From the NCBI GenBank assembly GCA_016195265.1, contig JACPZW010000062.1:9904-73903 (forward strand): DNA of 64,000 bases, in the 5' to 3' direction. The position numbers and the translations under genes are program-made. Shown here one piece after another: positions 6,064 to 28,824 of the stretch (position 1 is its first letter; the number at the start of each line of letters is the position of its first letter). Under the pieces are notes generated by a model, which ran no database searches, had not been told where the DNA came from, and saw only the letters and a list, made by a program, of their open reading frames with translations. The stretch comes from Acidobacteriota bacterium (GTDB taxonomy: Bacteria > Acidobacteriota > Vicinamibacteria > Vicinamibacterales > CAVVIG01).

Positions 6064-7110
6064 GTGAAGATCGCAGCCGTCCAAGCGTGTCCGGTGTACA
6101 TGGATCGCGACGCGACGGTCGCCAAGGCCTGCGACCTCATCGCGCAGGCCGGCGCGGCGGGCGGCTCGCTCGCGGTCTTTCCCGAAGCCTTCGTCCCGGG
6201 ATATCCGGTCTGGTCCTGGTTCGTCCCCGCGGGCCAGACCCACGCGCTCCGCACGATGTACGCGGAGCTCGTCGCCAACGCCGTCACCGTTCCGAGCGCC
6301 GCGACCGATCGACTGTGCCAGGCCGCGAAGACGGCGGGCGTCACCGTCGCCATCGGCATCAACGAGCTGAACGCCGAGGCGAGCGGAACAACCGTTTACA
6401 ACACGTTGCTCTATATCCGGGCCGATGGCGCCATCCTCGGCAAACATCGCAAGCTGATCCCCACCGGCGGCGAACGCCTCGTGTGGGCCTGGGGCGACGG
6501 CAGCGATCTCGCCGTCTATCCGACGCTGGTCGGCCGCGTGGGCGGTCTGATTTGCTGGGAGAACTACATGCCGCTCGCGCGCTATGCGCTGTCGGCGTGG
6601 GGCGCGGAGATTCTCGCGGCGCCGACGTGGGACCGCGGCGAGCCGTGGCTCTCAACGATGCGACACTCGGCGAAGGAAATGCGGTGCTACGTCGTCGGCT
6701 GCTGCAGCGCGATGCGCAAAGACGATGTGCCCGATCGATTCGCGTTCAAGAAGGATTTCATGAGCGGCGTCGACGGATGGATCAATCCCGGCGACAGCGT
6801 GATCGTGAATCCAGACGGCAAAATCATCGCGGGCCCCGCGCGCGAGCAGGAGACGATCCTCTACGCGGACGTGGATCCCGCGATGATCTCCGGGCCTAGA
6901 GGGCAGCTCGATGTCGCAGGCCACTACGCCCGGCCCGACGTCTTCGAGCTGATCGTCCATCGCCAGCCGAAGCCGTTGATCTCGATGGTGTCGGGCCCGC
7001 AGGAGAGCGACACCAGGTCGCCGAAGGCACCGACGCTGGCGGAACTGAAAGAGGGCGTGCGGCGCGACGTCAAGAGACGCCGTGCGCGCTCGCGACCTCA
7101 GGCTCGATGA
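6064..7110 (+). CDS. Nitrilase / cyanide hydratase family carbon-nitrogen hydrolase
   Basis: Glu-Lys-Cys triad contexts FPEAF, HRKLIPT and CWENYMP. GTG start. Confidence 0.85.
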   Translation: MKIAAVQACPVYMDRDATVAKACDLIAQAGAAGGSLAVFPEAFVPGYPVWSWFVPAGQTHALRTMYAELVANAVTVPSAATDRLCQAAKTAGVTVAIGINELNAEASGTTVYNTLLYIRADGAILGKHRKLIPTGGERLVWAWGDGSDLAVYPTLVGRVGGLICWENYMPLARYALSAWGAEILAAPTWDRGEPWLSTMRHSAKEMRCYVVGCCSAMRKDDVPDRFAFKKDFMSGVDGWINPGDSVIVNPDGKIIAGPAREQETILYADVDPAMISGPRGQLDVAGHYARPDVFELIVHRQPKPLISMVSGPQESDTRSPKAPTLAELKEGVRRDVKRRRARSRPQAR

Positions 7111-7712
7111 TGTCGAAAGGCTCTGACGTGAAACTGCGGTGGGCGCTCGTGGTGATGGGGATGTGGCTGATGGGCACGATCGCCACGTCCGTCGTGGCCA
7201 CCGAAAACTTCTACACCGTCGACCGCATGTTGGCCGCGTCGACGAACGTCCAGTTCTCCAAAGACGTCCAGACGCTCGGCCATCCGCAGACGCGAGAGCT
7301 GCTGCGGTACCTTTCGTCGGAGCTCAATCGCCTGTACTTCAGGATCTGGAACGTCGCGCAGCTCGTCATCGGCGGACTCGTCCTCTGGTTGATTGCCGGG
7401 TCTACAAAGCAAGGCCCGGCCTACATATCCATTCGTAGGGCGGGTTCTTTTGGACCCGCCAGCCTCGTCATCGCGATGCTGGCGGTCGTCGTCGTGATGC
7501 TCGCGTATCTGACGCCGGCGATCGTCTCGCTCGGGCGCGAGCTCGATTTCGTCCCGCACGATCCCGCGCCGCCCGGGATGTCGCGCTTCTGGATTCTGCA
7601 CGCCGCCTACACGACGCTCGCCGATCGAGTACGTGAGTCCCCGCACTGTTCACGACCTTCAGGTAATGGCGCGCCTGAGGCCCGGCGTGACGTTCGCCGA
7701 CGCGCGGCGTGA
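7107..7712 (+). CDS. Multi-pass membrane protein, C-terminus probably non-native
   Basis: ATG overlaps the nitrilase stop. Hydrophobic segments are present. The last ~30 codons read through an ABC-permease relic in another frame. A REP doublet is inserted between transmembrane segments. Confidence 0.5.
   Translation: MMSKGSDVKLRWALVVMGMWLMGTIATSVVATENFYTVDRMLAASTNVQFSKDVQTLGHPQTRELLRYLSSELNRLYFRIWNVAQLVIGGLVLWLIAGSTKQGPAYISIRRAGSFGPASLVIAMLAVVVVMLAYLTPAIVSLGRELDFVPHDPAPPGMSRFWILHAAYTTLADRVRESPHCSRPSGNGAPEARRDVRRRAA
7397..7460. repeat. REP-like doublet (family A, degenerate) inside a CDS
   Basis: ...GGCCCGGCCTAC (7413-7424) faces GTAGGGCGGGTTCTTTTGGACCCGCC (7435-7460). It is read in frame as STKQGPAYISIRRAGSFGPA. 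Confidence 0.7.
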
Positions 7713-15742: not shown

Positions 15743-15745
15743 CAT

Positions 15746-15946
15746 GTAGGCCGGGTCCTTTGGTACGTAGGCCGGGTCCTTTTGGACCCGGCTGTCCGGC
15801 GGGTCCGAAAGGACCCGCCCTACGTACTGCTTTCGGCGGGTCCGGAAGGACCCGCCCTACGTACCACGTGCCAGTTCATCGGCCGCAACGGGCAGATCCT
15901 GCTGACGAACGCGAATGACGTGTAGGCTGGGTCCTTCGGCCCCGGC
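15746..15946. repeat. Cluster of five REP-like elements, family A
   Basis: Copies at 15746-15763 (truncated), 15765-15792, 15796-15825, 15835-15864 and 15922-15946. Each is GTAGG + CCGGGTCC-loop-GGACCCGG or its reverse complement. Confidence 0.85.
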
Positions 15947-15952
15947 ACAGCG

Positions 15953-16387
15953 TCACCCAACCAGCGGATTGATTGTCTTGAGGCCGGCGAACCGGCTGAA
16001 GTCCCGGTCGGCCGTCCACAGCTCTCTCACACCGTGATGCATGCAGAGCGCGGCCACGCGCGCGTCGTGTACCACGCCCCCCGTCGCTTTCGATCGCTCG
16101 AGCACGCCGCGGAGCGCGGCCCAGTAGCCGTCCGATTCCGCCAACGTCACAACGCTCGGCGATTCCAGCCACGCATCCACCTGATCGAGCGCCACCCGCA
16201 GAGGCGTTGGCGGGCGGTAGATCCGCGGGTGGGTCACGATCGCGAGGAACTCGTGCAGGCACGCCGCCGGGATGGCCCAATGCGCCGTGCCTTCGGCCAG
16301 TTCAGCCATGCGAGCAGACGCCCGCTCATGCCAGGGCGAGTCCTTGCGATGCGCGTATACCAGGACGTTGGTGTCCACTGCGATCAT
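15953..16387 (-). CDS. vapC: PIN-domain toxin, type II toxin-antitoxin system
   Basis: N-terminal DTNVLVY and further acidic PIN residues. 4-nt overlap with the upstream antitoxin gene. Confidence 0.85.
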   Translation of the reverse strand: MIAVDTNVLVYAHRKDSPWHERASARMAELAEGTAHWAIPAACLHEFLAIVTHPRIYRPPTPLRVALDQVDAWLESPSVVTLAESDGYWAALRGVLERSKATGGVVHDARVAALCMHHGVRELWTADRDFSRFAGLKTINPLVG

Positions 16388-16632
16388 CGACCGCCGCGTC
16401 CTTCGTAGGCGCGATCGCGAATCGCGTTCCAGTCATCGTGCGACAGATCGGCCGCCAGGCCCTTGCCGCCGAACGTGACGCGGCGGAGCTTGAAGCCGCC
16501 CCGTTGCGCGCGCTTGTCGACGACCTTCCTCAAACCTTCCTCGATAAGGGCCCGGACGGTCGTCCCTTCCTTCGCGGCAACCCGGCGGGCTGCGGTCAGC
16601 AGGGTATCGGCGATTTCCACTGTCGTCTTCAT
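16384..16632 (-). CDS. vapB: VapB-type antitoxin
   Basis: 82 aa. MKTTVEIADTLL...AKEGTTVRALIEEGLR is typical of antitoxins paired with PIN toxins. Confidence 0.75.
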   Translation of the reverse strand: MKTTVEIADTLLTAARRVAAKEGTTVRALIEEGLRKVVDKRAQRGGFKLRRVTFGGKGLAADLSHDDWNAIRDRAYEGRGGR

Positions 16633-16646: not shown

Positions 16647-16732
16647 CACACTACCCATCATGATGTCTCATGAAAGTCTGCTCGGTTGAAAGCCCTCGCG
16701 CGAGGTCCGACATCCGCGCTACACTCCAGCGC

Positions 16733-17734
16733 ATGAAGACACGCTTGATTGCTCTCACTCTGGCGGCGGCGGTTGCGGCACCCGTCGCGTTCGCCCAGCA
16801 GACTGTCCGTTACGAGCCCGGCGACACAGATCTCAAGTACGTCTATGCAACCGTCCCTCCAGTGGCGACGCTGAAGCCGGGCGACACGCTCGAGACGAAG
16901 ACCGTGGACGCATTCGGCAACGTGATCCAGAAACCCGGCGACACGATGGCGATGGTGAAGGGCGACAACCCGCTGACGGGACCGTTCGCCGTCGCCGGCG
17001 CCGAGCCGGGCGACACGCTCGTCGTGAAGATTCTCGATCTCGTCGTGGACTCGCCGCGCGGCGTGGGCGCGCTCGCGCCTGGATTCGGCGCGCTGAACAC
17101 GACGTCCTACACGCCGATGCTGAACCCGAGTCTGCCCGAGCGCATCTGGTTCTACGACATCGACCGCGGCAAGAACCAGGCGACCTTCCACGCGCACGAC
17201 TCGAACTTCAGCGTGAACATCCCGATGCAGCCGTTTCTTGGCTGCATCGGCGTCGCGCCCGCGGGTGGCGAGGCCCGCAGCTCGATCGTCCCCGCCGAGT
17301 TCGGCGGCAACATGGACGCGCCGGAAGTGCGGCCGGGCTACACGCTCTACCTGCCGGTGAACGCGCCAGGCGCGCTGCTCTACATCGGCGACGGCCACGC
17401 GGCGCAGGGCGACGGCGAAGTCGCCGGCACGGCGATCGAAGTCCCGCTGCGCGTGCGGCTGCAGGTCGATCTGATCAAGGGCAAGAAAATCGCGTGGCCG
17501 CGGTTTGAGAACGAAGCGTCATTGATGGCGGTCGGCGCGTACCGTCCGCTCGACGATGCGCTGCGGATCGCGTTCACGGAGCTGGTGGGCTGGATTCACA
17601 GCGACTACAGATTGTCCGAACTCGACGCCTACGAGCTGTTGTCGAAGGTCGCGAAGATCCATCTCGTCGAGATGGTGGACCCGAATTACGTCGTCATCGC
17701 GGGGATCGATAAGAAATATCTGCCCGCGAGGTGA
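16733..17734 (+). CDS. Acetamidase/formamidase family protein, secreted
   Basis: Signal peptide MKTRLIALTLAAAVAAPVAFA, then GPFAVAGAEPGDTLVVKILD and GNMD motifs of the FmdA/AmdA family. Confidence 0.8.
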   Translation: MKTRLIALTLAAAVAAPVAFAQQTVRYEPGDTDLKYVYATVPPVATLKPGDTLETKTVDAFGNVIQKPGDTMAMVKGDNPLTGPFAVAGAEPGDTLVVKILDLVVDSPRGVGALAPGFGALNTTSYTPMLNPSLPERIWFYDIDRGKNQATFHAHDSNFSVNIPMQPFLGCIGVAPAGGEARSSIVPAEFGGNMDAPEVRPGYTLYLPVNAPGALLYIGDGHAAQGDGEVAGTAIEVPLRVRLQVDLIKGKKIAWPRFENEASLMAVGAYRPLDDALRIAFTELVGWIHSDYRLSELDAYELLSKVAKIHLVEMVDPNYVVIAGIDKKYLPAR

Positions 17735-17738
17735 GGAA

Positions 17739-17796
17739 GTAGGCCGGGTCCTTTCGGACCCGGCTGAACCGGCGGGTCCAAAAGGACCCGCCCTAC
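17739..17796. repeat. REP-like inverted doublet, family A
   Basis: GTAGGCCGGGTCCTTTCGGACCCGGC (17739-17764) and CCGGCGGGTCCAAAAGGACCCGCCCTAC (17769-17796) lie between convergent genes. Confidence 0.85.
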
Positions 17797-17799
17797 AAA

Positions 17800-20235
17800 T
17801 CACCGTTCGAAGCGCAGCTGCAGCCGGACGTGGCGGTCCTCGGAGTTGTAGAACGTGCCGAAGAACGGCGAGCCCGTGTTTGCCTGCACGTCGGCCGGCA
17901 GAAACGCGCTGAAGACGTTCGTCACGCGCACGCCCACCCAGGGTTTCCAACGGAAGACGTCCGCCCGGTACTGGAACCCGAGCTCCAGACGCGTGTAGGT
18001 CGGAAACCGGCGGTCGTTGCGGGCGCCGACGAAATCCAGCATCTCGTTGACGGCGGAGTACGGCACGCCGGTCCGCCAGTCCGCGGCGCCCAGCAACAGC
18101 CATCGCGGCGTCGCCAGAATGCGGCCCCGCACGAACAGCCGGTGCGGCACGTCCACGTTGAGCGGCGCGTACGCGTTCGCGCCGACGACGGGCGCCATCA
18201 CCGCATCAAAGAAGCTCGTCACGATGTTCAGATCGCCCTGCGCCGACGACCAGTCGTACAGCGCCTCGACGTCCGCGATCGTGCCGCGCGTGTAATGCGC
18301 GCCGATCTCGAGGTCGCGATAGCTCGACCCGCCGTCGCTCGACAGCCGCAGCTCGCCGGCGCTCGCGGTGACGGCCGGCTGCACGACGAACTCGCCTCGT
18401 CCATCGCGCTGGACGACGTTGGTGTGGAACGTCCACCGATCGCTGAACCGGTACTCGACGCCGGCGTCCCAGGCGCGGCTGCGCGGCGTCTCCAGTGCGG
18501 GCCCCGCCACGGGCGTGACGCGTACGGGTGACGCGATCGGCGTGACGCCGTTCGCCGCGAAACGCGCGTCCACCGCGCTCGTGAACGAACCGAACGCGCC
18601 GACGACCGAGGGCGTGCGGCCGTGAAAGAGACCAACGCCGCCGCGCAGCACGATGCTGCCAGAGCGATTCAGCAGCACGGCCGTGCCCATCCGCGGCGCG
18701 ACGTTGACCCGATCGACGATCCCGTCGCGATCGATTCTGGCGCCGAGCTCGACGTCCCACCGCGGCGTCAGCTCGAACCGGTCTTGCGCGAAGACGGCGA
18801 GATCGACGTTGCCGGTGGACTGGCGGCTCGGGCCCGCGTAGTCGAGCCGGCGCGCCAGCGTGCCGTCGGCGCGTTGGATCAGCACCGCGCGGCTGTCGCT
18901 CGCGCCGTCGTAGGCGGCGGCAATCACGTCGGCGCCGATCTTGAAGAGATGCGATCCCCACGGGCCGTCCTGCGGGACCGTCAGCAGCTCGACGAGCTGC
19001 ACCGATGTCGAGTCGCGCGCCTGCCGGTTGAAGAAATTCCCGAGCGTTGTCTCCGGCTGCAGGACCATCGGCGCGGCGCCCTGCGGCAGGACGTCGGTCC
19101 GCGACTGCAGGATCTGCACGGTCGTCTCGCTCGCGCGGTCGCCTGACCACAGCGTGCGCGCGGTGACCGCGGCGTGCGCGGCGAAGGCGTGCACGTCCAC
19201 GGTCGCGTCGGGGGACGTGAAGGTGCCGAGGTTCGTGGACGTCGATCGGTTGGGAAACACGCCGACGGTGGCGACGAGCGAGTGGCGCCGCGACAGAGTC
19301 GCGTCGGCGCGGCTGAACGCGCTGAAGAACGTCGACGTCCGCAGCTCCGACTCCGGGCGGCTCGGCACGTCGCTCGCGCTGTAGCGCAGCTGCCCGGTCT
19401 GCTCGAGGAAGAGCCGGTCCTTTATTAATGGCCCGCCGGTGGCGAACCGCGGTCCGAACGTGTCGATTCTGAACTTGAACAGCTCGCCGCGCGCGTTCCG
19501 GATCGTCGGGACGACGCGGTTGACCTGCGTGTGCCACTGGTCGGTGGCGCGCTTCGTCTGGATGACGACGACGCCCGACGCGAACCGCCCGTACTCGACG
19601 CCGTACGGGTTCGGCAGCACGGTGACCGAGTCGATCGCATCGTCAGGCAGCGCCACGTGCGCGATCGCGGATGACGGGTCGACCAGCGTGCCCGCGCCGA
19701 GCTGGACGCCCGTCTGGTTCGGACGTCCGCCCTTGATGTTCACGCCGCTCGAGGTCACGACGCTCGAAAACATCCGCACGGCGCTCTGAAATCCGGTGCC
19801 CGGCACGAACTGGTCGAGCTCCCGGCTGGCCATCGCGTCTTCCGGCGCGAGCGTGCCGCCGGTCGTCAGCACTTCGCTCGACGCGACGACGGCGATCGTT
19901 TCGGCGAGCGCGAGCTCGAGCGCAACGCGCGCGGTCCGTCCGCCGGCCACGACGACGGTCGCGTCCGCCGTTGCAAAGCCGCGTGCCGACGCCGTCACGC
20001 GATACGTGCCAGCAGGAAGGCCGCCGACGACGAAGCGGCCATCGCCGTCGCTGATCCGCCGCGCCACTACGCGGTCTGCGTCGTCGATCACGACGACTTC
20101 AGCGCGCGGAAGCGGAGTGCCGCCCTGCTGCATGGAGACGACGCCGCCTTCAATCGTACCCGTCGAGGCGGGTTGCTGAGTGCCCGCGAACGCAGGCGTC
20201 GAGGCGGTGAGCATCGCCAGAAGCAAGGCGGTCAT
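17800..20235 (-). CDS. TonB-dependent-receptor-like outer-membrane protein with a carboxypeptidase-regulatory-like domain
   Basis: Signal peptide, then GGLPAGTYRVTASARGF of a CarboxypepD_reg fold. Long beta-rich body with terminal ...LQLRFER. Confidence 0.75.
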   Translation of the reverse strand: MTALLLAMLTASTPAFAGTQQPASTGTIEGGVVSMQQGGTPLPRAEVVVIDDADRVVARRISDGDGRFVVGGLPAGTYRVTASARGFATADATVVVAGGRTARVALELALAETIAVVASSEVLTTGGTLAPEDAMASRELDQFVPGTGFQSAVRMFSSVVTSSGVNIKGGRPNQTGVQLGAGTLVDPSSAIAHVALPDDAIDSVTVLPNPYGVEYGRFASGVVVIQTKRATDQWHTQVNRVVPTIRNARGELFKFRIDTFGPRFATGGPLIKDRLFLEQTGQLRYSASDVPSRPESELRTSTFFSAFSRADATLSRRHSLVATVGVFPNRSTSTNLGTFTSPDATVDVHAFAAHAAVTARTLWSGDRASETTVQILQSRTDVLPQGAAPMVLQPETTLGNFFNRQARDSTSVQLVELLTVPQDGPWGSHLFKIGADVIAAAYDGASDSRAVLIQRADGTLARRLDYAGPSRQSTGNVDLAVFAQDRFELTPRWDVELGARIDRDGIVDRVNVAPRMGTAVLLNRSGSIVLRGGVGLFHGRTPSVVGAFGSFTSAVDARFAANGVTPIASPVRVTPVAGPALETPRSRAWDAGVEYRFSDRWTFHTNVVQRDGRGEFVVQPAVTASAGELRLSSDGGSSYRDLEIGAHYTRGTIADVEALYDWSSAQGDLNIVTSFFDAVMAPVVGANAYAPLNVDVPHRLFVRGRILATPRWLLLGAADWRTGVPYSAVNEMLDFVGARNDRRFPTYTRLELGFQYRADVFRWKPWVGVRVTNVFSAFLPADVQANTGSPFFGTFYNSEDRHVRLQLRFER

Positions 20236-20278
20236 GGGTGACGGGAGCCGCGATTATAGAGGAAGTAGAATCTGTGCG

Positions 20279-21276
<998 letters not shown>

Positions 21277-21280
<4 letters not shown>

Positions 21281-22278
21281 AAAACGTCACGACGACCGCG
21301 GCCGCCGCGAGCGCCCTCGACCCCGCGCTGCTCGCCCGCATCGCCGACCTCGAGCTGGTCGCGCGAATCATCGTCGAAGGTCTCGTCTCCGGCCTGCATC
21401 GCAGTCCGTTTCACGGCTACAGCGCCGAGTTCAGCCAGTACCGGCACTACCGGCCCGGCGACGATCTCAAGTACGTCGACTGGAAGCTGGCGGCGCGGAC
21501 CGATCGCTTCTACACGAAACAGTTCCGCGAGACGACGAACATGGCGGCGACGCTCGTCGTGGACACGAGCGCATCGATGGACTTTCCGTACGTAGGCCGG
21601 GTCCTTTCGGACCCGGCACGACTCACAAAGTTTCGCTATGCCGTTCTCGCCTCCGCCGCGCTCGCACATTTGATCTCGAGGCAGGGCGACGCCGTCGGAC
21701 TCGTCGCCGCCGGCGGACGTTTCATCCCGCCGCGCACCGGGCGCCAGCACCTGCGCGGGCTGCTCGCCGCGCTGGGCGATCTTGGCGGGTCCAGACCGCC
21801 TTCGCCAAGGCTACGGTGGTCCGCCGAAGCTTTACGCGGAGGCGGAAGGACCCGCCCCACGGAATCCGGCCCCCTCGCGTGGGACGGCACGGAGACCATC
21901 CGCCGCGCGGCCGATCGCATGACCCGCCGCGGCCTGCTGCTCGTGCTCTCGGACTTCTACGACGACGAGGAACGCGCGTTCGCGGAGTTGCGGCGGGCGG
22001 CGCGGATGGGACACGAGGTCGTGCTGTTCCAGATCCTGAGCCGTGACGAGATCGAGTTTCCCTACAAGAGCGATTTCGAGTTCACGGATCTCGAGACCGG
22101 ACGGTCGGTCGCCGTCAACGCCGCCGTCGCCCGACGCAAGTACAGAGATGAAGTGGCGGCGTTTCTCGAACGCTGGCGCAGCCGCGCCGGCGCAGAGGGC
22201 TTTCAGTATTCGCTGATCGTCACGGACACGCCAATTGAGCGCTCGCTTCGAAGTGTTCTGCTCGCACGGGGAAATTAG
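21277..22278 (+). CDS. DUF58 domain protein (MoxR partner)
   Basis: GTGA overlap with moxR. Contains YRPGDDLKYVDWKLAARTDRFYTKQFRE. Carries two repeat-derived in-frame inserts. Confidence 0.8.
21588..21617. repeat. REP-like element, family A, inside a CDS
   Basis: TACGTAGGCCGGGTCCTTTCGGACCCGGC is read as YVGRVLSDPA. Confidence 0.8.
21784..21856. repeat. Palindromic element, family D, inside a CDS
   Basis: GGCGGGTCC...GGCTACGGTGGTCCGCCGAAGC...GGACCCGCC. A related copy in reverse orientation lies at 56416-56458. Confidence 0.6.
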
Positions 22279-22366: not shown

Positions 22367-23635
22367 ATGACGTTTCTCTATCCCACGGCTTTCTTTGCGG
22401 TCTTCCTCGTCACTGTCCCCGTCCTGATTCATTTGCTCGTGCACCGGCGGGCCGAACGGCTGGTGTTCCCGACGCTCCGCTTTATCCAGCCGGCGCGCCT
22501 CGCGTCGATGCGGCGGCGGATGCTGGACGACGTGCCGCTGCTCGCCGTGCGCGTGGCCATTCTTGGCGCGGCGATCGCCGCGCTGGCGGCGCCGCTCCTG
22601 ATCACGTCCGCGCGCGAGCGCGCCTGGAACGCGCGCGTGGTGCGCGAGACCGTCGCCGGTGCCGACCTGCGCGACGGTCTGCGGCGGGCCGTCGCCGCGC
22701 TCGGCCATGCTCCGCCGGCGCGGCGGGAAATTGTCGTCGCGTCGGCGTTCCCGATCGGATCGCTGACGCCCGCGGACATCGCCGCTGTACCGACGTCGAT
22801 CGGCCTTCGCTTCGAACGGATCGGCGCGCTGCCCGAGACGCGTTCGACCGCCGATACGCGTGTGCTGGCCGACGGCGGCGCGGTCCTGTCGAGGCAACTG
22901 ACGCTCGCCGGCGCGCGCACGAGCGTGCGCGAAGCTCGGGCCGCCGAGCGCGAGCCGTTCCCAATTGAGGTGGACGCGCCACCCGGCGCGAAGCCCGCCC
23001 TCGACGCGGCGATCGCCGCCGTTTTGTCGCAGCGCGTGTGGGCGCCGCCAGCCGGCCGGCGGGCGAGGCTGGTGATCGCCGGAAGGCCAACGCCACCCGT
23101 CACACCGGCGAACGCGCCGTGGATGGCGGATGCCATCGCGCGGATGTCGCGCGATTCTGACCTGCGGACGGCGGCGTCGCACACGACAGGCATCTCGCTC
23201 GACGCGCGTTTCGTGGCCCCCCCGTGGCAAGTGGTCGCCGTGTCTGACGACGTAGGGGCGGAGCTTGCTCCGCCCGCGCCCTTGATCGTCGTGGCGGCCT
23301 CGGGGTCCGACCTGCTTGTCGTCAGCGCGGCAAGCCCGCTCGACATCGTCACGCCGGTGCTGCTGCGATCGATCGTCAACAGCCTCGCCGTCCTGCCAGA
23401 TCTGCGGCAGGCCGAAGTCGTGACGATTTCGGATTCGCAGCTTCGCGCGTGGTCGCGTCCCGCACCTCCACCGGCCGCGCCGCGGCTGGACTCGCCCTCG
23501 CTGGAAGACGTCAGCGACGATCGCCCGTGGTTCTGGGCTGCCACGCTCGCGCTTCTCGCCCTCGAGGGGTGGATGCGACGCGCACGCGCGACGGACGTGA
23601 ACGGCGGCGCCGGGGACGTGGCTCGTGTCGCCTGA
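22367..23635 (+). CDS. BatA-N-terminal-domain (TIGR02226-like) membrane protein
   Basis: N-terminal MTFLYPTAFFAVFLVTVPVLIHLL...FPTLRFI is characteristic of the aerotolerance-operon double-transmembrane domain. Confidence 0.7.
   Translation: MTFLYPTAFFAVFLVTVPVLIHLLVHRRAERLVFPTLRFIQPARLASMRRRMLDDVPLLAVRVAILGAAIAALAAPLLITSARERAWNARVVRETVAGADLRDGLRRAVAALGHAPPARREIVVASAFPIGSLTPADIAAVPTSIGLRFERIGALPETRSTADTRVLADGGAVLSRQLTLAGARTSVREARAAEREPFPIEVDAPPGAKPALDAAIAAVLSQRVWAPPAGRRARLVIAGRPTPPVTPANAPWMADAIARMSRDSDLRTAASHTTGISLDARFVAPPWQVVAVSDDVGAELAPPAPLIVVAASGSDLLVVSAASPLDIVTPVLLRSIVNSLAVLPDLRQAEVVTISDSQLRAWSRPAPPPAAPRLDSPSLEDVSDDRPWFWAATLALLALEGWMRRARATDVNGGAGDVARVA
23252..23275. repeat. REP-like element, family B, inside a CDS
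   Basis: GTAGGGGCGGAGCTTGCTCCGCCC is read as VGAELAPP. Confidence 0.75.
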
Positions 23636-25679
23636 CGAGCGCCTCATCCGCGACACGATCGACGCCGCACGGCGCCGCGCGGGTGTGCTTGCCGCAGCCG
23701 AGGCGGCCGCCTGGGGAGCGGCGGTCGCGGCGATCTGGCCCATCGGCGGCGCATTGGTTGCGCTGGCCCTCGCGTTCTGGCGATCGCGATCGGTTGGACG
23801 CCCTGCCGTCGTCCGCGCGCTCGAGCGCACTCATCCTGACGCCCGCAACCTGTTGATCACCGCCGACGAGCTGGCGAGCGGTGTGATCGGTAGGCCGGGT
23901 CCTTTCGGACCCGGCAACCTCTCCAACGTCAAGCCGGAGATCCGCGACCGTGTGTTCGCCGACGCCGCCGCGCGGGCGCGGCAGGTCGATCTCCGTCGCG
24001 CGTTCCCGTTCACGCCGCTCGTGCGCTCCGTGGCGGTCGCGTCCGTGGTGTGGATCGTGGTGGCCGCGCGAAGGCCGATATCGCGCGTGACGCTTTTCGA
24101 TCAGTCGGCGTCCTCAGCGTTCACGACAGTCGCGCCCGGTGCGCTGCGCGTGACGACGACGATTCAACCGCCGGCGTACACCGGATTGGCAGGGACGACC
24201 CTGGTCGATCCGGCGCAGCTTCAGGCGATCGAAGGCAGCACGCTCACGATCTCTATTGAGTCGCCTGCGGCCACGCTCGCGTTGGAGCAGGACGGCGCCT
24301 CGCGCCCGCTCGCGCGCGCGTCCAATGGCCGATTCGCCGATCGCGTGGCGCTGACGAAGACGGGCTATCTCCTCATCACGGGCGACGATGGCGCGCGCCG
24401 GCTCATTCCGGTCGTCGTCTCGCCGGACGCGCTGCCGGCGGTGAAGCTGACGGCGCCCGGCCGCGATCTGCGATACGCGTCTGGAAATCCGAGCCTCACG
24501 AACATTGCCATGGAGGCGCGCGCGACGGACGACTTCGGTCTGCGGACGCTGGCGCTGCGCTACACGAAAGTGTCGGGTTCAGGCGAGCAGTTCGACTTCG
24601 AGGAAGGCGAGCTGCCGCTCCGTGTGACGCGGACGAACGCGCGCGACTGGACGGGCAGCGTCTCGCGATCGCTCGCGGACCTGAATCTGAAAGACGGCGA
24701 CATGCTCGTCTACCGCGCGGTCGCGTCGGACGCGCGGCCCGGCGACGGCAGCGCCAGCTCGGACGCGTTCTTCATCGAGATCTCGAAGCTCGGCGCGGCA
24801 GCCGGTGATGCGTTCACGCTGCCGGAAGAGGAAACGAAGTACGCGCTCAGCCAGCAGATGCTGATCATGAAGACCGAACGCCTGACGAATCAGCGCTCCG
24901 CGATGACGTCCGGCGATTTCGGCGAGGCCGCGCGGAATCTGGCCGTCGAGCAGCGGATGATTCGCGCGGAGTTCGTGTTTATGCTCGGCGGTGAGGTCGA
25001 AGACGAGGACGTCGAGGCCGCGCGGTCGAACGAGCTGCAGGAGGGCCGGCTGCAGAATCGCGGGCAGCGCGACCTTCGCGCGGCGACCGTGGCGATGAGT
25101 CAGGCCGAGAAGCTGCTGACCGGCGCCAACACGACGGACGCGCTGACGGCCGAGCGCGCGGCCGTCTCGGCGCTGCAGCGGGCGTTCTCGAAGGACCGCT
25201 ACATCCTGAGAGCGCTCGGCGCCAGGAGTCAGCTCGATCAGACGCGGCGGCTGACCGGCAACTTGTCGCAGGCCGCGGACTGGCGTCGCGTCCCGCCGGA
25301 TCCGGCGACGGACCGGCGTCTCGCGCAGACCGGGGATCTGCTGCGCGGGATCGCCGAGTTGGCTGCGGCGGCGGACGCGCGCGATTGGCGATCGCGCGCC
25401 CTCGTGCTGGCGGAGCAGGCGCTGCGCATCGATCCGGCGTCGGCATCGCTGCGGCAGATTGCGACGGACCTGCAGCGCGCGGCAGACGCGGCCGACGCCG
25501 CCCGCTCGAGCGCGCTCGCATCGGCTGCGACCGCGGCCGCCGACGAGGCGCGCCGGGCGCACGCCGGCGGCACGCTCGCGACGCCCATTGTCGCGCCGGC
25601 GCTGAGCGGCGCCTTCGCCGATGCGCTGAATCCCGCGGCGTCCGGCTCCAGCCGGACCGCTCCGAGCGTGAAGCGATGA
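23625..25679 (+). CDS. Large membrane-anchored hypothetical protein of the Bat-like operon
   Basis: 684 aa. It overlaps both neighbours (translational coupling) and has N-terminal transmembrane segments. Confidence 0.6.
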   Translation: MSPDERLIRDTIDAARRRAGVLAAAEAAAWGAAVAAIWPIGGALVALALAFWRSRSVGRPAVVRALERTHPDARNLLITADELASGVIGRPGPFGPGNLSNVKPEIRDRVFADAAARARQVDLRRAFPFTPLVRSVAVASVVWIVVAARRPISRVTLFDQSASSAFTTVAPGALRVTTTIQPPAYTGLAGTTLVDPAQLQAIEGSTLTISIESPAATLALEQDGASRPLARASNGRFADRVALTKTGYLLITGDDGARRLIPVVVSPDALPAVKLTAPGRDLRYASGNPSLTNIAMEARATDDFGLRTLALRYTKVSGSGEQFDFEEGELPLRVTRTNARDWTGSVSRSLADLNLKDGDMLVYRAVASDARPGDGSASSDAFFIEISKLGAAAGDAFTLPEEETKYALSQQMLIMKTERLTNQRSAMTSGDFGEAARNLAVEQRMIRAEFVFMLGGEVEDEDVEAARSNELQEGRLQNRGQRDLRAATVAMSQAEKLLTGANTTDALTAERAAVSALQRAFSKDRYILRALGARSQLDQTRRLTGNLSQAADWRRVPPDPATDRRLAQTGDLLRGIAELAAAADARDWRSRALVLAEQALRIDPASASLRQIATDLQRAADAADAARSSALASAATAAADEARRAHAGGTLATPIVAPALSGAFADALNPAASGSSRTAPSVKR
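23889..23915. repeat. REP-like element, family A, inside a CDS
   Basis: GGTAGGCCGGGTCCTTTCGGACCCGGC is read as GRPGPFGPG. Confidence 0.8.
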
Positions 25680-27745
25680 CTCGTCTGGTTCCGCGCGCGA
25701 TTGCCATCGCCATCGCCGTCGCCGGCCTGGTCGATCCCGCGATCACTCTGTCCGGCTCAACACGCGCGCGCCTGGCGATTGTCCAGCTGGATCCGGCGGG
25801 TCCAAAAGGACCCGCCCTACATGCCACCGCTGACCCGGCGGGTCCAAAAGGACCCGCCCTACATGCCACTGCTGACCCGGCGGGTTCAAAAGGACCCGCC
25901 CTACATGCCACCGCTGACCCGGCGGGTCCAGGTGATGCCGCCACTCGAGCCCGAGATCGGCTCTCGCGTGACCTTAGCTCGTCGTTCGAGATCGTTCCGC
26001 AGATCACGTCGGATGCGGCAGCCGCGATCGTGGTCGGCGACCGGTATCCACGCGAGTCCGTTCCCGATGCGCTGCGCGTCGCGACCGTGACGACGGCACC
26101 GGCGGCCATCGGCGTGCCCTTTGTCAAGATTGTCAGGATCGACGCGCCGCCTGAGGTTCCGCCTGGCACCGCGATCCATATCGTGGCCGAGATCGAGGGC
26201 TCCGGCGTCGCCGGCCGGACAAGCGACGTGCGCGTCTCGATCGCCGGGATTGACATGGGCCGCGCGTCGCACGTGTGGACGGCGGCGCGCGAGCGATGGC
26301 GCGCATCATTCGACGCCGTTCCGGTCGGCGATCCGCCGTACGTCGTCCGCGTTGCTGGCGACGACGTCCGCGCGGTGGTGGTCGACGCACGCCGCCGGCC
26401 CTTGCGCGTCGAGGTCTACGAGCCGCGGCCGTCGTGGGCGTCCACGTTCGTGCGCCGGGCGCTCGAGGCCGACCCGCGCTTTCAGGTCGCGAGCGTCAGC
26501 GTGACGTCGCGCGGGATCGCGTCCCGCGCGGGTGACGCCGTGTCGCTCGCCGATCCCCGGCTCGACGCCTCCGACGTCGTCGTGATCGGCGGCCTGGATC
26601 GGCTGACCGCCGCGGACGCCCGGGCCCTCGATCGCGTCATGCGTGAGCGCGGCGGCGCTGTCGTGCTCCTTCCGGATGCGCGCCTCGACGCCGGTCCGGC
26701 GCGCGATCTGATCCCCGTCGAGTTGAAGGAGCGATTGCTGGAGCGCCCGACGAAGCTCGCGACGAGGGCGCCGTCGCCCCCGTTCGAGGCGTCGGAGTTG
26801 TTGGTTCCAGATCCGCGGTACGTAGGGCGGGTCCTTTCGGACGCGCCTGATCAGGATCCGCGATACGTAGGGCGGGTCCTTTCGGACCCGCCTGATCAGC
26901 CGGGTCCGAAAGGACCCGGCCTACAAATCGGGACTCTTTTGGACCCGCCTGATCAGCCGGGTCCGAAAGGACCCGGCCTACAAATCGGGACTCGACTGCC
27001 GGGTCCGAAAGGACCCGGCCTACTCGACACGATCGCGAGCACTCGACCCGCCCAGCAGATCATTGCGAGCACGACCGGCGACGATGCCGCGCCGGTCGTC
27101 GTGTCGGTCCCGCGCGGCTACGGGCGGCTCGTGTGGTCCGGCGCGATGGACGCGTGGCGCTTCCGCGCGAACGACGATGGCGCGTTCGATCGGTTCTGGC
27201 AGTCGACGATTGCCGGGCTTGCGCTGCAGGCGCCCGCGCCGATCGATGTGCGCGTCGAGCCTTCGTTTCTCGAGCCGCGCGAGACCGGCGACGTCATCGT
27301 CCGCCTCCGATCGCGCCCCGTGGGCGACGCCCCGCCTGTCAGCGCGGCGGTTGACGGCACACCGATCCGGCTGCGGCCCGATCCTGAAGCCGGCGTTTTC
27401 AGAAGCACGTTCATCGCGCGCGACACGCCCGGCCTTTCGCGCGTCGACGTTCGCGTCGACGGCACGAGTCCGCAGTCCGCGTCCGCGACAATCGTCGTCG
27501 AGAACGACGCGCATCGCGTCGATCCCGGACTACGCGCGGCGCTCTCGATGCTCGCGACGTCGCACGGCGGCATCGACGTCACGCCCGATCGCATCGACGC
27601 GATCGAGCGGTGGGCAAGCGCGACGGTCGCCGCCCCGACGACAACCGTCCGCCGATATCCGATGCGGTCGGCCTGGTGGATCGCTCCGTTCGCCGCCTGT
27701 TTGGCGGGTGAGTGGTGGATGCGCCGCCGCGCTGGACAGCGCTGA
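25676..27745 (+). CDS. Large hypothetical protein with N- and C-terminal membrane anchors, last gene of the Bat-like operon
   Basis: ATGA overlap with the upstream gene. Transmembrane segments at both ends. Contains two REP arrays read in frame. Confidence 0.6.
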   Translation: MTRLVPRAIAIAIAVAGLVDPAITLSGSTRARLAIVQLDPAGPKGPALHATADPAGPKGPALHATADPAGSKGPALHATADPAGPGDAATRARDRLSRDLSSSFEIVPQITSDAAAAIVVGDRYPRESVPDALRVATVTTAPAAIGVPFVKIVRIDAPPEVPPGTAIHIVAEIEGSGVAGRTSDVRVSIAGIDMGRASHVWTAARERWRASFDAVPVGDPPYVVRVAGDDVRAVVVDARRRPLRVEVYEPRPSWASTFVRRALEADPRFQVASVSVTSRGIASRAGDAVSLADPRLDASDVVVIGGLDRLTAADARALDRVMRERGGAVVLLPDARLDAGPARDLIPVELKERLLERPTKLATRAPSPPFEASELLVPDPRYVGRVLSDAPDQDPRYVGRVLSDPPDQPGPKGPGLQIGTLLDPPDQPGPKGPGLQIGTRLPGPKGPGLLDTIASTRPAQQIIASTTGDDAAPVVVSVPRGYGRLVWSGAMDAWRFRANDDGAFDRFWQSTIAGLALQAPAPIDVRVEPSFLEPRETGDVIVRLRSRPVGDAPPVSAAVDGTPIRLRPDPEAGVFRSTFIARDTPGLSRVDVRVDGTSPQSASATIVVENDAHRVDPGLRAALSMLATSHGGIDVTPDRIDAIERWASATVAAPTTTVRRYPMRSAWWIAPFAACLAGEWWMRRRAGQR
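25793..25929. repeat. Three tandem 42-bp units, each containing a family A REP, plus a partial fourth
   Basis: CCGGCGGGTCCAAAAGGACCCGCCCTACATGCCACCGCTGAC occurs three times, with 1-2 substitutions in the second and third units. It is read as DPAGPKGPALHATA x3. Confidence 0.9.
26819..27023. repeat. Array of five full and one partial family A REP copies in both orientations, inside a CDS
   Basis: Forward copies at 26819-26847 and 26865-92. Reverse copies at 26899-26936, 26956-26993 and 26999-27023. Read as YVGRVLSD.. and QPGPKGPGLQIG.. Confidence 0.9.
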
Positions 27746-27748
27746 AGC

Positions 27749-27841
27749 AACTACCCAACTACCCAACTACCTAATTACCCACTTACTCAGTTCGATCGGT
27801 GTGATTGATTGGGTAGTTGAGTAAGTGGGTAATTGGGTAAT
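27749..27841. terminator. Word hairpin (TTACCCA/TGGGTAA words) between convergent genes
   Basis: Left arm 27749-27789 and right arm 27806-27841 are reverse-complementary arrays of 7-8-nt words. Confidence 0.55.
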
Positions 27842-27852
27842 GGCTCCGGCGC

Positions 27853-28824
27853 TCAGAAGCCGTAGAGCCGTGCCGGATTGTCCACCAGGATCGTCCTGCG
27901 CTGCGCGGCGTCCGGCACCCAGGTCGGAAGCAGGTTGAACACTCTGCCGTCGTCGATTTGCCGGAGCGGCGTGATGTCTGTGACCTTGCCGCCAATCACC
28001 CGAGCACCCGGATGCGGCCAGTTCGTCCCCCAGACGAGACGCTCCGGATTCGCCGCGAGGAGCGCTTTCGCAAGCGGCGCGACATCCGGGTAGTCCGGCG
28101 CCTGCGTCGATGAAAGATACGGCGCGGAAATCTTGACGTACGCGTGACCCGTGCGAACGAGATTCACCAGCGTCGCGAAGCCGGGTTGCTGAATGCCGAG
28201 CGACGCCTGCGCGCCGCCGAAGTGATCGAACACCACGCGAACGGCAGCGCCGGCGACGAGGTCGCTGATGGCCTCGATCACGCTCAGCCGCGTATAGATT
28301 TGAATGTGCCAGCCGCGAGCTTTCATCCGCTCCGCCGCGCGTTGGAAACGCTGCCGGGCAATGGCGGGATCCGTGACGCCCGTGGTTTCCAAATTGAGAC
28401 GGATCCCTCGAATGCCCGCGCGAGACATTCCATCCAGCATCGGGTCGGTGGTGCTGTCGTCGATGACGGCGACGCCACGGGCGCTCGAGCCGAGCTGCCT
28501 GAGCGCATCGAGCGTGCAGGCGTTGTCGGTGCCGTACACGCTGGGCTGAACGATGACCACGCGGCTCGTGCGCAGCGCTCGATGCAGGGCGCGGATTTCG
28601 GCGACCGACGCCGGCTCCGGCGTGTACGTGCGATCGGGTGCGAACGGAAAGCGCGCCGAACTTCCGAAGATGTGCGTGTGGCAATCGCACGCGCCCGGCG
28701 GCACGTCGAAGCTGACCTGTGTCGCCGGTTGTGACGCCTTGGCGAACGCCGACGCGGCGCGTCCTGCGAACGCCGCCGCGCCGGCCGCTGCCGCCCCGAC
28801 GAGCACATTGCGCCGCGATATCAT
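27853..28824 (-). CDS. Amidohydrolase-2 family metal-dependent hydrolase with a Tat signal
   Basis: SRRNVLVG twin-arginine motif and CDCHTHIF metal-binding motif. ATG at 28824 is preceded by GGAGG; an alternative ATG lies at 28863. Confidence 0.75.
   Translation of the reverse strand: MISRRNVLVGAAAAGAAAFAGRAASAFAKASQPATQVSFDVPPGACDCHTHIFGSSARFPFAPDRTYTPEPASVAEIRALHRALRTSRVVIVQPSVYGTDNACTLDALRQLGSSARGVAVIDDSTTDPMLDGMSRAGIRGIRLNLETTGVTDPAIARQRFQRAAERMKARGWHIQIYTRLSVIEAISDLVAGAAVRVVFDHFGGAQASLGIQQPGFATLVNLVRTGHAYVKISAPYLSSTQAPDYPDVAPLAKALLAANPERLVWGTNWPHPGARVIGGKVTDITPLRQIDDGRVFNLLPTWVPDAAQRRTILVDNPARLYGF

Follow-up and report, generated by a model that had tools for sequence, protein, structure and literature searches.

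A tandem array of 42-bp units lies near the 5' end of a conserved membrane protein gene in the window (the whole 64-kb stretch of DNA analysed, from an uncultured groundwater Acidobacteriota bacterium), and it very likely originated by local tandem amplification of a GTAG-type REP element, a short palindromic and "selfish" repeat, already residing in the gene. The anatomy of the array, the single copy that relatives have at the site and the one-copy allele of a related strain were directly observed.

Structure of the array and of its host gene

Tandem Repeats Finder (TRF), applied to the 64-kb window, detected 3.3 direct tandem copies of a 42-bp unit (period 42, 95% matches, 0 indels, score 262), with the same consensus as the three head-to-tail units and partial fourth described in the initial annotation. 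Each unit was formed by a tail-first REP (GGCGGGTCC-AAAA-GGACCCGCC-CTAC) and a spacer of 14–16 nt, and the GTAG-type hairpin present in every one of them agreed with the earlier claim of a REP-containing repeat. Unit 1 spans positions 25793-25834. Unit 2 (25835-25876) carries the single change C25870T, which is synonymous (ACC>ACT), and unit 3 (25877-25918) the single change C25886T, by which CCA becomes TCA (Pro>Ser) and one stem pair is lost; the partial unit 4 comprises 25919-25930. The near-identity of the units had therefore been correctly noted, but the one to two substitutions attributed to units 2 and 3 were exactly one in each. In the frame of the gene (ATG at 25676), residues 40-85 read DPAGPKGPALHATA / DPAGPKGPALHATA / DPAGSKGPALHATA / DPAG, which is the 14-residue protein repeat that had been placed straight after the N-terminal membrane anchor. 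The 48-aa peptide of the array, queried against 5.8 billion proteins, gave no match at E<=0.01, since the query was too short and compositionally biased.

The host gene is the final gene of a MoxR/DUF58/BatA-like/DUF4175 operon, and its ATG overlaps the stop codon of the DUF4175 gene (ATGA). The protein had 375 homologs, usually of 565–600 aa, and its alignment contained more than 130 invariant columns, those before the array including R7, I13, A14, D20, P21, G27 and R32 (19 aligned homologs). The 39 residues N-terminal to the array constitute a TM anchor, which was conserved in 19/19 aligned homologs, and a conserved domain lies directly downstream of the array. Hence, given the ATGA overlap and the conserved parts at both sides, an alternative start was discarded, and the in-frame translation of the array is, as judged from the sequence, the sole way to connect the conserved parts of the protein.

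In the AF2 model, pLDDT was below 50 at residues 20-93 and 384-458, which contain both REP clusters of the protein; the array-bearing segment is accordingly modelled as disordered, with a shallow alignment (19 sequences) behind the model and low-pLDDT segments that exceed the REP inserts in length. A fold search with the host protein yielded weak matches only (TM ~0.2), to OST48/Wbp1-like and GH42 C-terminal-like domains. Compared with the one-copy state, the array adds 28 residues to this floppy linker.

Table 1. Coordinates of the array, its host operon genes and the REP loci of the window.
Feature	Position	Strand	Evidence
Tandem REP array, 3.3 x 42 bp	25793..25930	+	TRF, unit-by-unit comparison, exact k-mer contigs X1-X3
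Host gene, 689 aa, N- and C-terminal TM helices	25676..27745	+	Homologs, invariant columns, AF2 model
DUF4175 gene, upstream, translationally coupled to the host gene	23625..25679	+	
Possible degenerate leftover of an older fourth unit; GGTG ATGCCGCCACTCGAG vs ...ATGCCACCGCTGAC; hairpin 3' arm absent	25931..25965	+	Direct reading
Second in-frame REP cluster, 5 hairpins including tail-to-tail inverted doublets; residues 379-452	26810..27030	+	
Single in-frame REP, DUF4175 gene (GRPGPFGPG)	23890..23915	+	
Single in-frame REP, DUF58 gene (YVGRVLSDP)	21592..21617	+	
Composite in-frame REP, DUF58 gene; arms parted by a 50-nt palindromic loop element (GGSRPPSPRLRWSAEALRGGGRTRPTES)	21784..21860	+	
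Head-to-head REP doublet, first copy decayed, in ORF 7107-7712, putative membrane protein (...GPAYISIRRAGSFGPA...)	7396..7460	+	
Intergenic REP cluster of 3 hairpins and a partial copy, spaced by 27 and 37 nt	15744..15866	.	
Intergenic tail-to-tail REP doublet, between convergent genes	17739..17796	.	

REP elements across the window

A total of 16 REP hairpins were located at 7 loci of the window, against 0.32 expected by chance, and all of them (16/16) had GTAGG before or CCTAC after the hairpin. The element has 26 nt and consists of a 9-bp GC stem (GGCGGGTCC/GGACCCGCC), a T-rich loop of 4 nt and a CTAC tail. Both orientations were present, and the copies stood alone, in tail-to-tail or head-to-head pairs or in clusters, with inverted doublets at 15774/15801, 17746/17774 and 26874/26902. 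In the source metagenomes, REP words were ~160–370 times deeper than the single-copy flanks.

Of the 16 hairpins, 11 were inside ORFs: three confirmed genes of the operon held ten, and one lay in a putative ORF (7107-7712), which is probably a fourth gene with an in-frame REP. The majority of the family in the window was thus intragenic and not extragenic as in GTAG-type REPs, but this does not exclude its membership, because the literature accepts intragenic members. At least five in-frame sites were counted across three to four genes of the window. The REP repeat in one protein had been recognized before, while this wider context had been missed. The REP core is free of stops in five of the six frames, four of which were observed in use, and the predicted peptides include DPAGPKGPALHATA, VGRVLSDPPDQPGPK and GRPGPFGPG. 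The tandem periods inside the host gene were 42, 45 and 57 bp, all multiples of 3; the spacings in the intergenic clusters were 27, 28 and 37 nt. Since the family is dispersed, the array was regarded as a by-product of REPs in coding DNA and not as a protein-specific feature.

The second REP cluster of the host gene contains tandem duplications with periods of 45 and 57 bp, and its site has 0–3 REPs in the orthologs versus five in the window. The contigs over this cluster were swamped by REP copies from other places, and their joints were uninterpretable. The single insertion in the DUF4175 gene was present in the L080 ortholog and absent in those of L077 and L079, and the single REP of the DUF58 gene corresponded to a 9-aa insertion with respect to the L076 ortholog. 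The 50-nt loop insert of the composite DUF58 element recurred, reverse-complemented, in a REP loop of the L076 DUF4175 gene.

RAYT genes (Y1/HUH transposases) are typically flanked by their cognate REPs. The stretch bounded by the two intergenic clusters (15.8–17.8 kb) was considered as a location for such a gene, but none was seen in it, the genes there encoding VapC, VapB and an acetamidase-like protein. A RAYT gene in another part of the genome, of which the 64-kb window is a small fraction, may be responsible for mobilising the REP family.

Copy number among orthologs and strains

Each of the seven closest orthologs (P0002-P0008) contained exactly one hairpin at this site, beginning 122 nt into the gene, with a variable loop (AAAA, AATA, AGAA, GAAC, GAGT or TCAA). 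P0009 and all the more distant homologs had no REP at the site. Hence, the recent expansion proposed in the initial annotation was supported, because all seven close orthologs hold one copy at the same site; the distant homologs, in which conservation of the repeat would have spoken against it, carry none. No tandem arrays were detected by TRF in the L076 operon and, therefore, the amplification is not shared with it.

The REP stem was decaying in P0007 and P0008, and one stem pair was altered on both sides in P0005 and P0008. In comparison with the window, 32/40 third-codon positions of the stem were conserved versus 105/197 in the flanks, a difference that reached significance only when the window was one member of each pair, a set of comparisons lacking independence, and did not do so in an all-pairs test; no claim of selection on the hairpin is therefore made. 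A search for the orthologous-site pattern in a metagenome contig collection that does not include these samples gave 0 matches, although L076 was expected, and a protein-based scan of the same collection retrieved only already-known, distant or fragmentary loci.

A k-mer contig covering 25837-25930 was recovered with 0 differences in three independent groundwater runs (X1, X2 and X3) and contained the two SNPs specific to single units as well as the join with partial unit 4, while the junction between units 1 and 2 (25817-25861/63) was found in X1, X2 and X4. These contigs prove at least three units and are compatible with additional copies of the unit-1 type. Since exact contigs with unit-specific SNPs were obtained in independent runs, the triplication is not an assembly artefact.

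A 168-bp contig of a related groundwater strain in run X6 joined 25802 to 25887, so that precisely two units (84 bp) were missing, and both of its unique flanks matched the window (0/55 and 8/109 differences). The site is therefore length-variable, as had been anticipated, and the amplification is recent and varies with the strain, given the single-copy orthologs and this allele two units shorter. The one-copy allele of X6 kept the segment 25931-25965, a weak candidate for the remainder of an older fourth unit. In strain X5, unit-2- and unit-3-specific words were almost missing, and the contigs left the layout of its array unsettled.

The earlier reading of the site as a contingency locus was not supported: the 42-bp period is a multiple of 3, so that changes in copy number cannot act as an on/off switch for the gene. 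Lying within the CDS, the array alters neither the frame nor the spacing of a promoter, changes expected of phase-variable loci. Its features are those of an in-frame VNTR in a linker, with near-identical 3n-bp units, predicted to be translated, and a strain-dependent copy number.

Origin of the array and comparison with known systems

According to the proposed amplification, a single in-frame REP would have been fixed in the variable juxtamembrane linker in the ancestor of a small Acidobacteriota clade, with a protein identity of at least 74% among its members. In the window's own lineage, the 42-bp block (REP and a 14–16-nt spacer) would then have been duplicated, from ~1.3 to 3.3 copies. 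The likeliest mechanism would be slipped-strand mispairing or unequal recombination at the short direct repeats CCGGCGGGTCCA, and hairpin extrusion may have aided the duplication. Only frame-preserving events would survive in the host gene, because indels of other lengths would wreck a conserved gene. The resulting tether, longer than in the one-copy state by 28 residues, is probably neutral or nearly so, and the low-confidence segment of the model probably tolerates the insertion. The hairpin itself might be under constraint, with a function beyond neutrality.

Other explanations were weighed against this amplification. The array could be an adaptive, contingency-like module, in which frequent copy-number change tunes how far the extracytoplasmic or cytoplasmic domains of the protein reach from the membrane and variability is selected. 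The coexistence of one-unit and three-unit alleles among related strains is consistent with this, as are the variation of the second REP cluster of the host gene, from 0 to 5 REPs across orthologs, and the near-identity of the units, which favours slippage. Nevertheless, the idea appears improbable: with just three copies and a 3n period there is no switching, no alternative-length contig was found in the four samples with the window strain (X1-X4), from which contigs drop rare variants, and the site has long been stable, since the seven orthologs are all single-copy. Moreover, similar indels from the same REP family occur in unrelated genes, as would be expected of a by-product more than of a dedicated mechanism. 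It is similarly doubtful that the REP family is "coding-compatible", preferring to persist in genes and generating linker-length variation in envelope-associated proteins (MoxR/BatA-type operon); if this were true, the loop-nested composite REPs would add further linker variation.

There is even less reason to read the hairpins as a functional RNA or DNA element that, from the 5' end of the distal cistron, shields the mRNA of the upstream genes against 3' exonucleases or slows distal translation, and whose effect triplication would strengthen. The array did fold far more stably than shuffled controls, as RNA (-85.6 kcal/mol, z -6.6) and as DNA (-45.2 kcal/mol, z -5.5), the hint of stem conservation and the stem change on both sides point in the same direction, and passages of PMC3733652 mention that E. 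coli REPs stabilise upstream mRNA and argue that many REPs act as RNA. However, these hairpins lie within a translated region and would be unwound by ribosomes, the stem decays in two of the orthologs and is missing in P0009 and the distant ones, and the all-pairs conservation was not significant. In addition, a scan of 25500-28000 found neither a terminator nor a promoter within the array and no terminator-like T-tract after its hairpins, and the entire window had 0 Rfam matches at the gathering threshold. An artefact, either of annotation (a true start downstream of the array, leaving the REPs extragenic) or of assembly (a mis-assembled triplication), is very improbable and already largely refuted. 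Passages of Di Nocera et al. (PMC3733652) do caution that REPs at the N-termini of ORFs are in many cases extragenic, owing to mis-called starts, short-read assemblers often miscount tandem repeats, and the exact 689-aa protein was absent from a public gene-position index; yet the anchor is conserved in all the aligned homologs, the start is coupled, and the unit-specific SNPs allowed contigs from independent runs to span units 2, 3 and partial 4 and the junction of units 1 and 2.

Amplification of an intragenic REP is a kind of event already described, in the form of intragenic in-frame GTAG REPs and REP clusters (Di Nocera, 2013) and of the RPEs of Rickettsia. Nothing shows a new mechanism behind the array, nor that it is a programmed contingency switch. 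The case is a clean and datable one of REP/REPIN repeats reshaping proteins, with a linker insertion that was inherited across species and tandem-amplified in one strain. It adds uncultured groundwater Acidobacteriota to the hosts of intragenic GTAG-REPs and indicates that several genes of one operon can bear REPs at once. It also carries two warnings for annotation: AGPKGPAL, VGRVLSDP, RPGPFGPG and GSxRTRPT are translated repeats and not domains in these genomes, and short-read assemblies may miscount such repeats.

GTAG-type REP/REPIN elements are RAYT-associated repetitive extragenic palindromes (Nunvar, 2010, PMC2817692; Bertels and Rainey, 2011, PMC3116915; Di Nocera, 2013, PMC3733652), with a conserved GTAG (GTRG) tetranucleotide at one end of an imperfect, GC-rich palindrome whose stem has 5–13 bp and whose loop is short. 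According to the last of these papers, intragenic GTAG REPs occur singly, as dimers and as clusters encoding 43–82 aa, and neutrality was suggested for them where they fall in flexible linkers or loops. The host lineage, an uncultured one of Acidobacteriota, is absent from the passages of PMC3733652. The elements of the window resemble this family in their GTAG head, 9-bp GC-rich stem, 4-nt loop, high copy number, dispersion, occurrence in both orientations, doublets and clusters, and in having sub-variants with complementary stem changes (GGGC/GCCC vs GGCC). They differ from it in the predominance of hairpins in ORFs, against the usual extragenic bias, and the units of the array all point the same way at a constant 42-bp period, unlike the alternation of BIMEs.

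To our knowledge, RPEs are confined to Rickettsia and have no sequence relation to the REP of the window. Both are in-frame palindromic insertions in many unrelated, apparently functional genes, adding short stretches of peptide at tolerated sites and with variable presence in orthologs. RPEs (Ogata et al., 2000; refs 13 and 14 of PMC3733652) appear in passages of that paper with RPE-1 as a "longer" palindromic insertion and with the intragenic REPs of R. conorii (RPE-4/6) as of the CGTC type. In contrast, the element of the window has 26 nt and a GTAG tag and belongs to an Acidobacteriota genome; it behaves like an RPE without being a member, and it shows tandem amplification of one intragenic copy.

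Classical contingency loci, of the Moxon simple-sequence type, have units of 1–8 nt by which the reading frame or the spacing of the promoter is shifted, and they vary in clonal populations, and in-frame variation of repeat number is found in envelope proteins such as the streptococcal alpha C protein. Unlike such loci, the array has three units, causes no frame shift and derives from a genome-wide, putatively mobile palindrome; like them, it consists of near-identical 3n units in an envelope-associated protein, with a copy number that depends on the strain.

The tandem array and its host gene

A tandem array of a 42-bp unit, built on a small GTAG-type palindromic repeat (REP), was detected at 25793-25930 (Tandem Repeats Finder: period 42, 3.3 copies, 95% matches, zero indels, score 262). 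The initial annotation had described this array as a REP-containing unit read as a 14-residue protein repeat; its position and quoted consensus were confirmed and its identification was largely right. Each unit contains a hairpin, GGCGGGTCC-AAAA-GGACCCGCC, with a 9-bp GC stem and a 4-nt loop; the CTAC behind it is the reverse complement of the GTAG head. The sole difference from unit 1 was C25870T in unit 2, which is synonymous, and C25886T in unit 3, which changes Pro to Ser and removes one stem pair. A 12-nt partial unit, CCGGCGGGTCCA, follows unit 3. The array is translated as residues 40-85 (DPAGPKGPALHATA, DPAGPKGPALHATA, DPAGSKGPALHATA, DPAG), and its folding energy was predicted at -85.6 kcal/mol (z -6.6) for RNA and -45.2 kcal/mol (z -5.5) for DNA.

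The host gene, encoding 689 aa, starts at an ATG overlapping the upstream DUF4175 stop (ATGA) and is the last of an operon (MoxR-type AAA ATPase, DUF58, BatA-like double-TM protein, DUF4175, host gene) whose order was kept in relatives. The database search returned 375 homologs from MAGs of Acidobacteriota and Vicinamibacterales, typically 565-600 aa long. When 19 sequences were aligned, the 39 residues preceding the array formed a conserved hydrophobic anchor (invariant R7, I13, A14, D20, P21, G27 and R32), and a conserved block, RDRL..SSFEIVPQITSDAAAA, started directly after it. The array is thus located inside a real gene and must be translated to connect anchor and block. An AlphaFold2 model from the same alignment (mean pLDDT 61.9, pTM 0.58) predicted a TM helix at either terminus, with beta-sandwich domains and one alpha/beta domain besides; pLDDT was below 50 at residues 20-93 and 384-458, where both REP clusters of the protein fall. 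The fold search gave weak matches only (TM about 0.2; OST48/Wbp1-like and GH42 C-terminal-like).

Because GC is high, spurious long ORFs are numerous on either strand throughout the window; one of them, 24979-26256 (-), reads through the array. At 21064-21280, about 215 nt of the longest DUF58 ORF (404 aa) lie within the end of the MoxR gene. In DUF58 orthologs, which have 301-322 aa, the start coincides with the MoxR stop; the true start of the window's DUF58 gene therefore probably lies near 21277.

One unit in orthologs and in a related strain

A single 'AGPxGPAL' was present at the array position in all seven closest orthologs (P0002-P0008; 74-79% identity, alignment A1); the next ortholog, P0009 (66%), and every more distant homolog carried an unrelated short linker. 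At the DNA level, the distance from the gene start to the hairpin was 122 nt in the window and in the related loci L003, L076 and L077; the other orthologs had the hairpin at the aligned position. Loops varied (AAAA, AATA, AGAA, GAAC, GAGT, TCAA), and in P0005 and P0008 both sides of one stem pair were changed (GGGCCC...GGGCCC), also synonymously; the stem was partly decayed in P0007 and P0008. The exact hairpin was found in none of 74 other loci from GTDB species representatives, and the REP family is therefore limited to a narrow clade. The insertion is thus old and common to a clade of species, and the triplication is private to the window lineage, which bears out the recent expansion proposed from the sequence. 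In P0002 (L076 10001-11872), a 21-nt insertion, CTGCGTACCGGAGGCAATCGG ('LRTGGNR'), lies directly 3' of the REP tail at this site, another frame-preserving indel adjoining a REP.

Among groundwater metagenome runs, X1-X4 (79-98% of sampled words) and X8 matched the window, and two runs of a second study, X5 and X6, matched it less well. These runs were represented by k=31 contigs, which break in the array, give no copy count and drop rare variants. The array was confirmed by contigs: the piece 25837-25930 was found with no differences in X1, X2 and X3, and 25817-25861/63 in X1, X2 and X4. A 168-bp contig of X6 joined 25748-25802 (no differences) directly to 25887-25995 (8 differences), skipping exactly 84 bp, or two units, and including both unique gene flanks. 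This is an allele with one unit (plus the partial unit) in a related strain, the state expected of the precursor. The X5 strain differed by a few SNPs in the flanks; it almost lacked the words particular to units 2 and 3 (depth 1.5-9 versus about 18), and its contigs diverged within the array. No alternative joint was found in the X1-X4 contigs, from which rare variants are dropped. Of the suggested contingency or length-variation site, length variation was partly borne out, between strains; the 'contingency locus' label was not earned, because a frame shift is impossible, there are only three units and the variation observed is between strains.

The REP family and other in-frame copies

The 64-kb window contained 16 matches to the core GGGTCC-N4-GGACCC (at most one mismatch), compared with 0.32 expected from shuffled sequence, and all 16 copies had the GTAG(G) head. 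They occurred in either orientation as singletons, doublets and clusters, in agreement with the GTAG-type REP/REPIN anatomy published in PMC3733652. An Rfam search gave no match for the REP. In metagenomes containing the window genome, REP word depth was about 160-370x that of single-copy flanks, which fits hundreds of copies, possibly spread over several community members.

Positions of the array units, operon genes, REP copies and neighbouring elements
Feature	Position	Remarks
Unit 1	25793-25834	
Unit 2	25835-25876	
Unit 3	25877-25918	
Partial unit 4	25919-25930	
Host gene	25676-27745 (+)	
Second REP cluster of host gene	26810-27030	Five hairpins, residues 379-452
MoxR-type AAA ATPase	20180-21280	First of the operon genes
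DUF58 gene		In-frame REP YVGRVLSDP; absent in L076
DUF4175 gene		In-frame REP GRPGPFGPG; present in L080, absent in L077 and L079
Putative multi-TM protein ORF	7107-7712 (+)	Head-to-head REP doublet 7396-7460, apparently in-frame
REP singletons	21599, 23897	
Tail-to-tail inverted REP doublets	15774/15801, 17746/17774, 26874/26902	
Head-to-head REP doublet	about 7400/7442	First copy decayed
Composite REP	21784-21860	
AT-rich palindrome	27746-27850	
VapC (PIN)/VapB-like pair	15953-16632 (-)	
Acetamidase/formamidase-like gene	16670-17734 (+)	
REP clusters flanking these genes	15744-15866, 17739-17796	

Ten of the 16 hairpins fell within confirmed coding sequence and one more within the putative multi-TM ORF, which probably carries the doublet. 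The core is stop-free in five of six frames, four of which were seen in use (AGPKGPAL, VGRVLSDP, RPGPFGPG, GGS..RTRPT). The second cluster of the host gene contained 45-bp and 57-bp tandem duplications (98% identical); orthologs, P0009, L086 and L088 among them, had 0-3 REPs there. All three tandem periods of the host gene (42, 45 and 57 bp) were multiples of 3, against spacings of 27, 28 and 37 nt in intergenic clusters, which marks the reading frame as under purifying selection.

In a composite 'long-form' REP (-55.9 kcal/mol), a 50-nt palindromic element with core GCCAAGGCTACGGTGGTCCGCCGAAGC occupied the loop and separated the two arms. This insert recurred reverse-complemented, about 88% identical, in the loop of an oppositely oriented REP in another gene, DUF4175, of the relative L076 (8167-8240). 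Both copies are translated in-frame, adding 17-18 aa. Either a nested element has inserted into REP loops, or the family has a second member of greater length.

After the host-gene stop, the convergent intergenic space held an imperfect palindrome of about 100 nt, unlike the REP family, with arms of 8-bp tandem repeats (CAACTACC x4.2 and ATTGGGTA x4.2; predicted hairpin -44.7 kcal/mol), which may be a bidirectional terminator or other small repeat element. Additionally, the REP-flanked block of a VapC/VapB-like toxin-antitoxin pair and an acetamidase/formamidase-like gene may be an inserted cassette; it was absent in syntenic L076 and L077, where a Ser/Thr kinase gene adjoins a TonB-dependent receptor gene.

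Origin, effect and precedents

The most likely history of the array comprises three steps, of which we infer the last two. A single REP was fixed in a tolerant linker. A partial second copy, CCGGCGGGTCCA, possibly what is left of an older unit that lost its 3' arm, would then have arisen downstream and created 12-nt direct repeats 42 bp apart. From these repeats, the recent expansion would have come about through slipped-strand mispairing or unequal recombination, which hairpin extrusion would have favoured.

The result is a Pro/Gly/Ala-rich tether longer by 28 residues, a change that is probably neutral. Less probably, the hairpins act on mRNA stability or on translation. Pairings with the window, which are non-independent, showed third positions more conserved in the stem than in flanking sequence (32/40 versus 105/197, Fisher p=0.0016), but over all pairs the difference (71% versus 65%) was not significant.

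Rickettsia RPEs are the classic case of in-frame palindrome insertion. For GTAG REPs, Di Nocera et al. (2013; PMC3733652) report, from several species, copies that lie wholly within ORFs; over half of these intragenic copies are dimers or groups encoding 20-30 aa, and clusters in Thauera and R. conorii encode 43-82 aa. Neutrality is proposed there from their location in flexible linkers or loops. The array (46 aa) and the second cluster (74 aa) are within this precedent. What is new is the host lineage of intragenic REPs, their density within one operon, the persistence of one of them orthologously across species, and the survival of a one-copy allele beside a dated tandem amplification.
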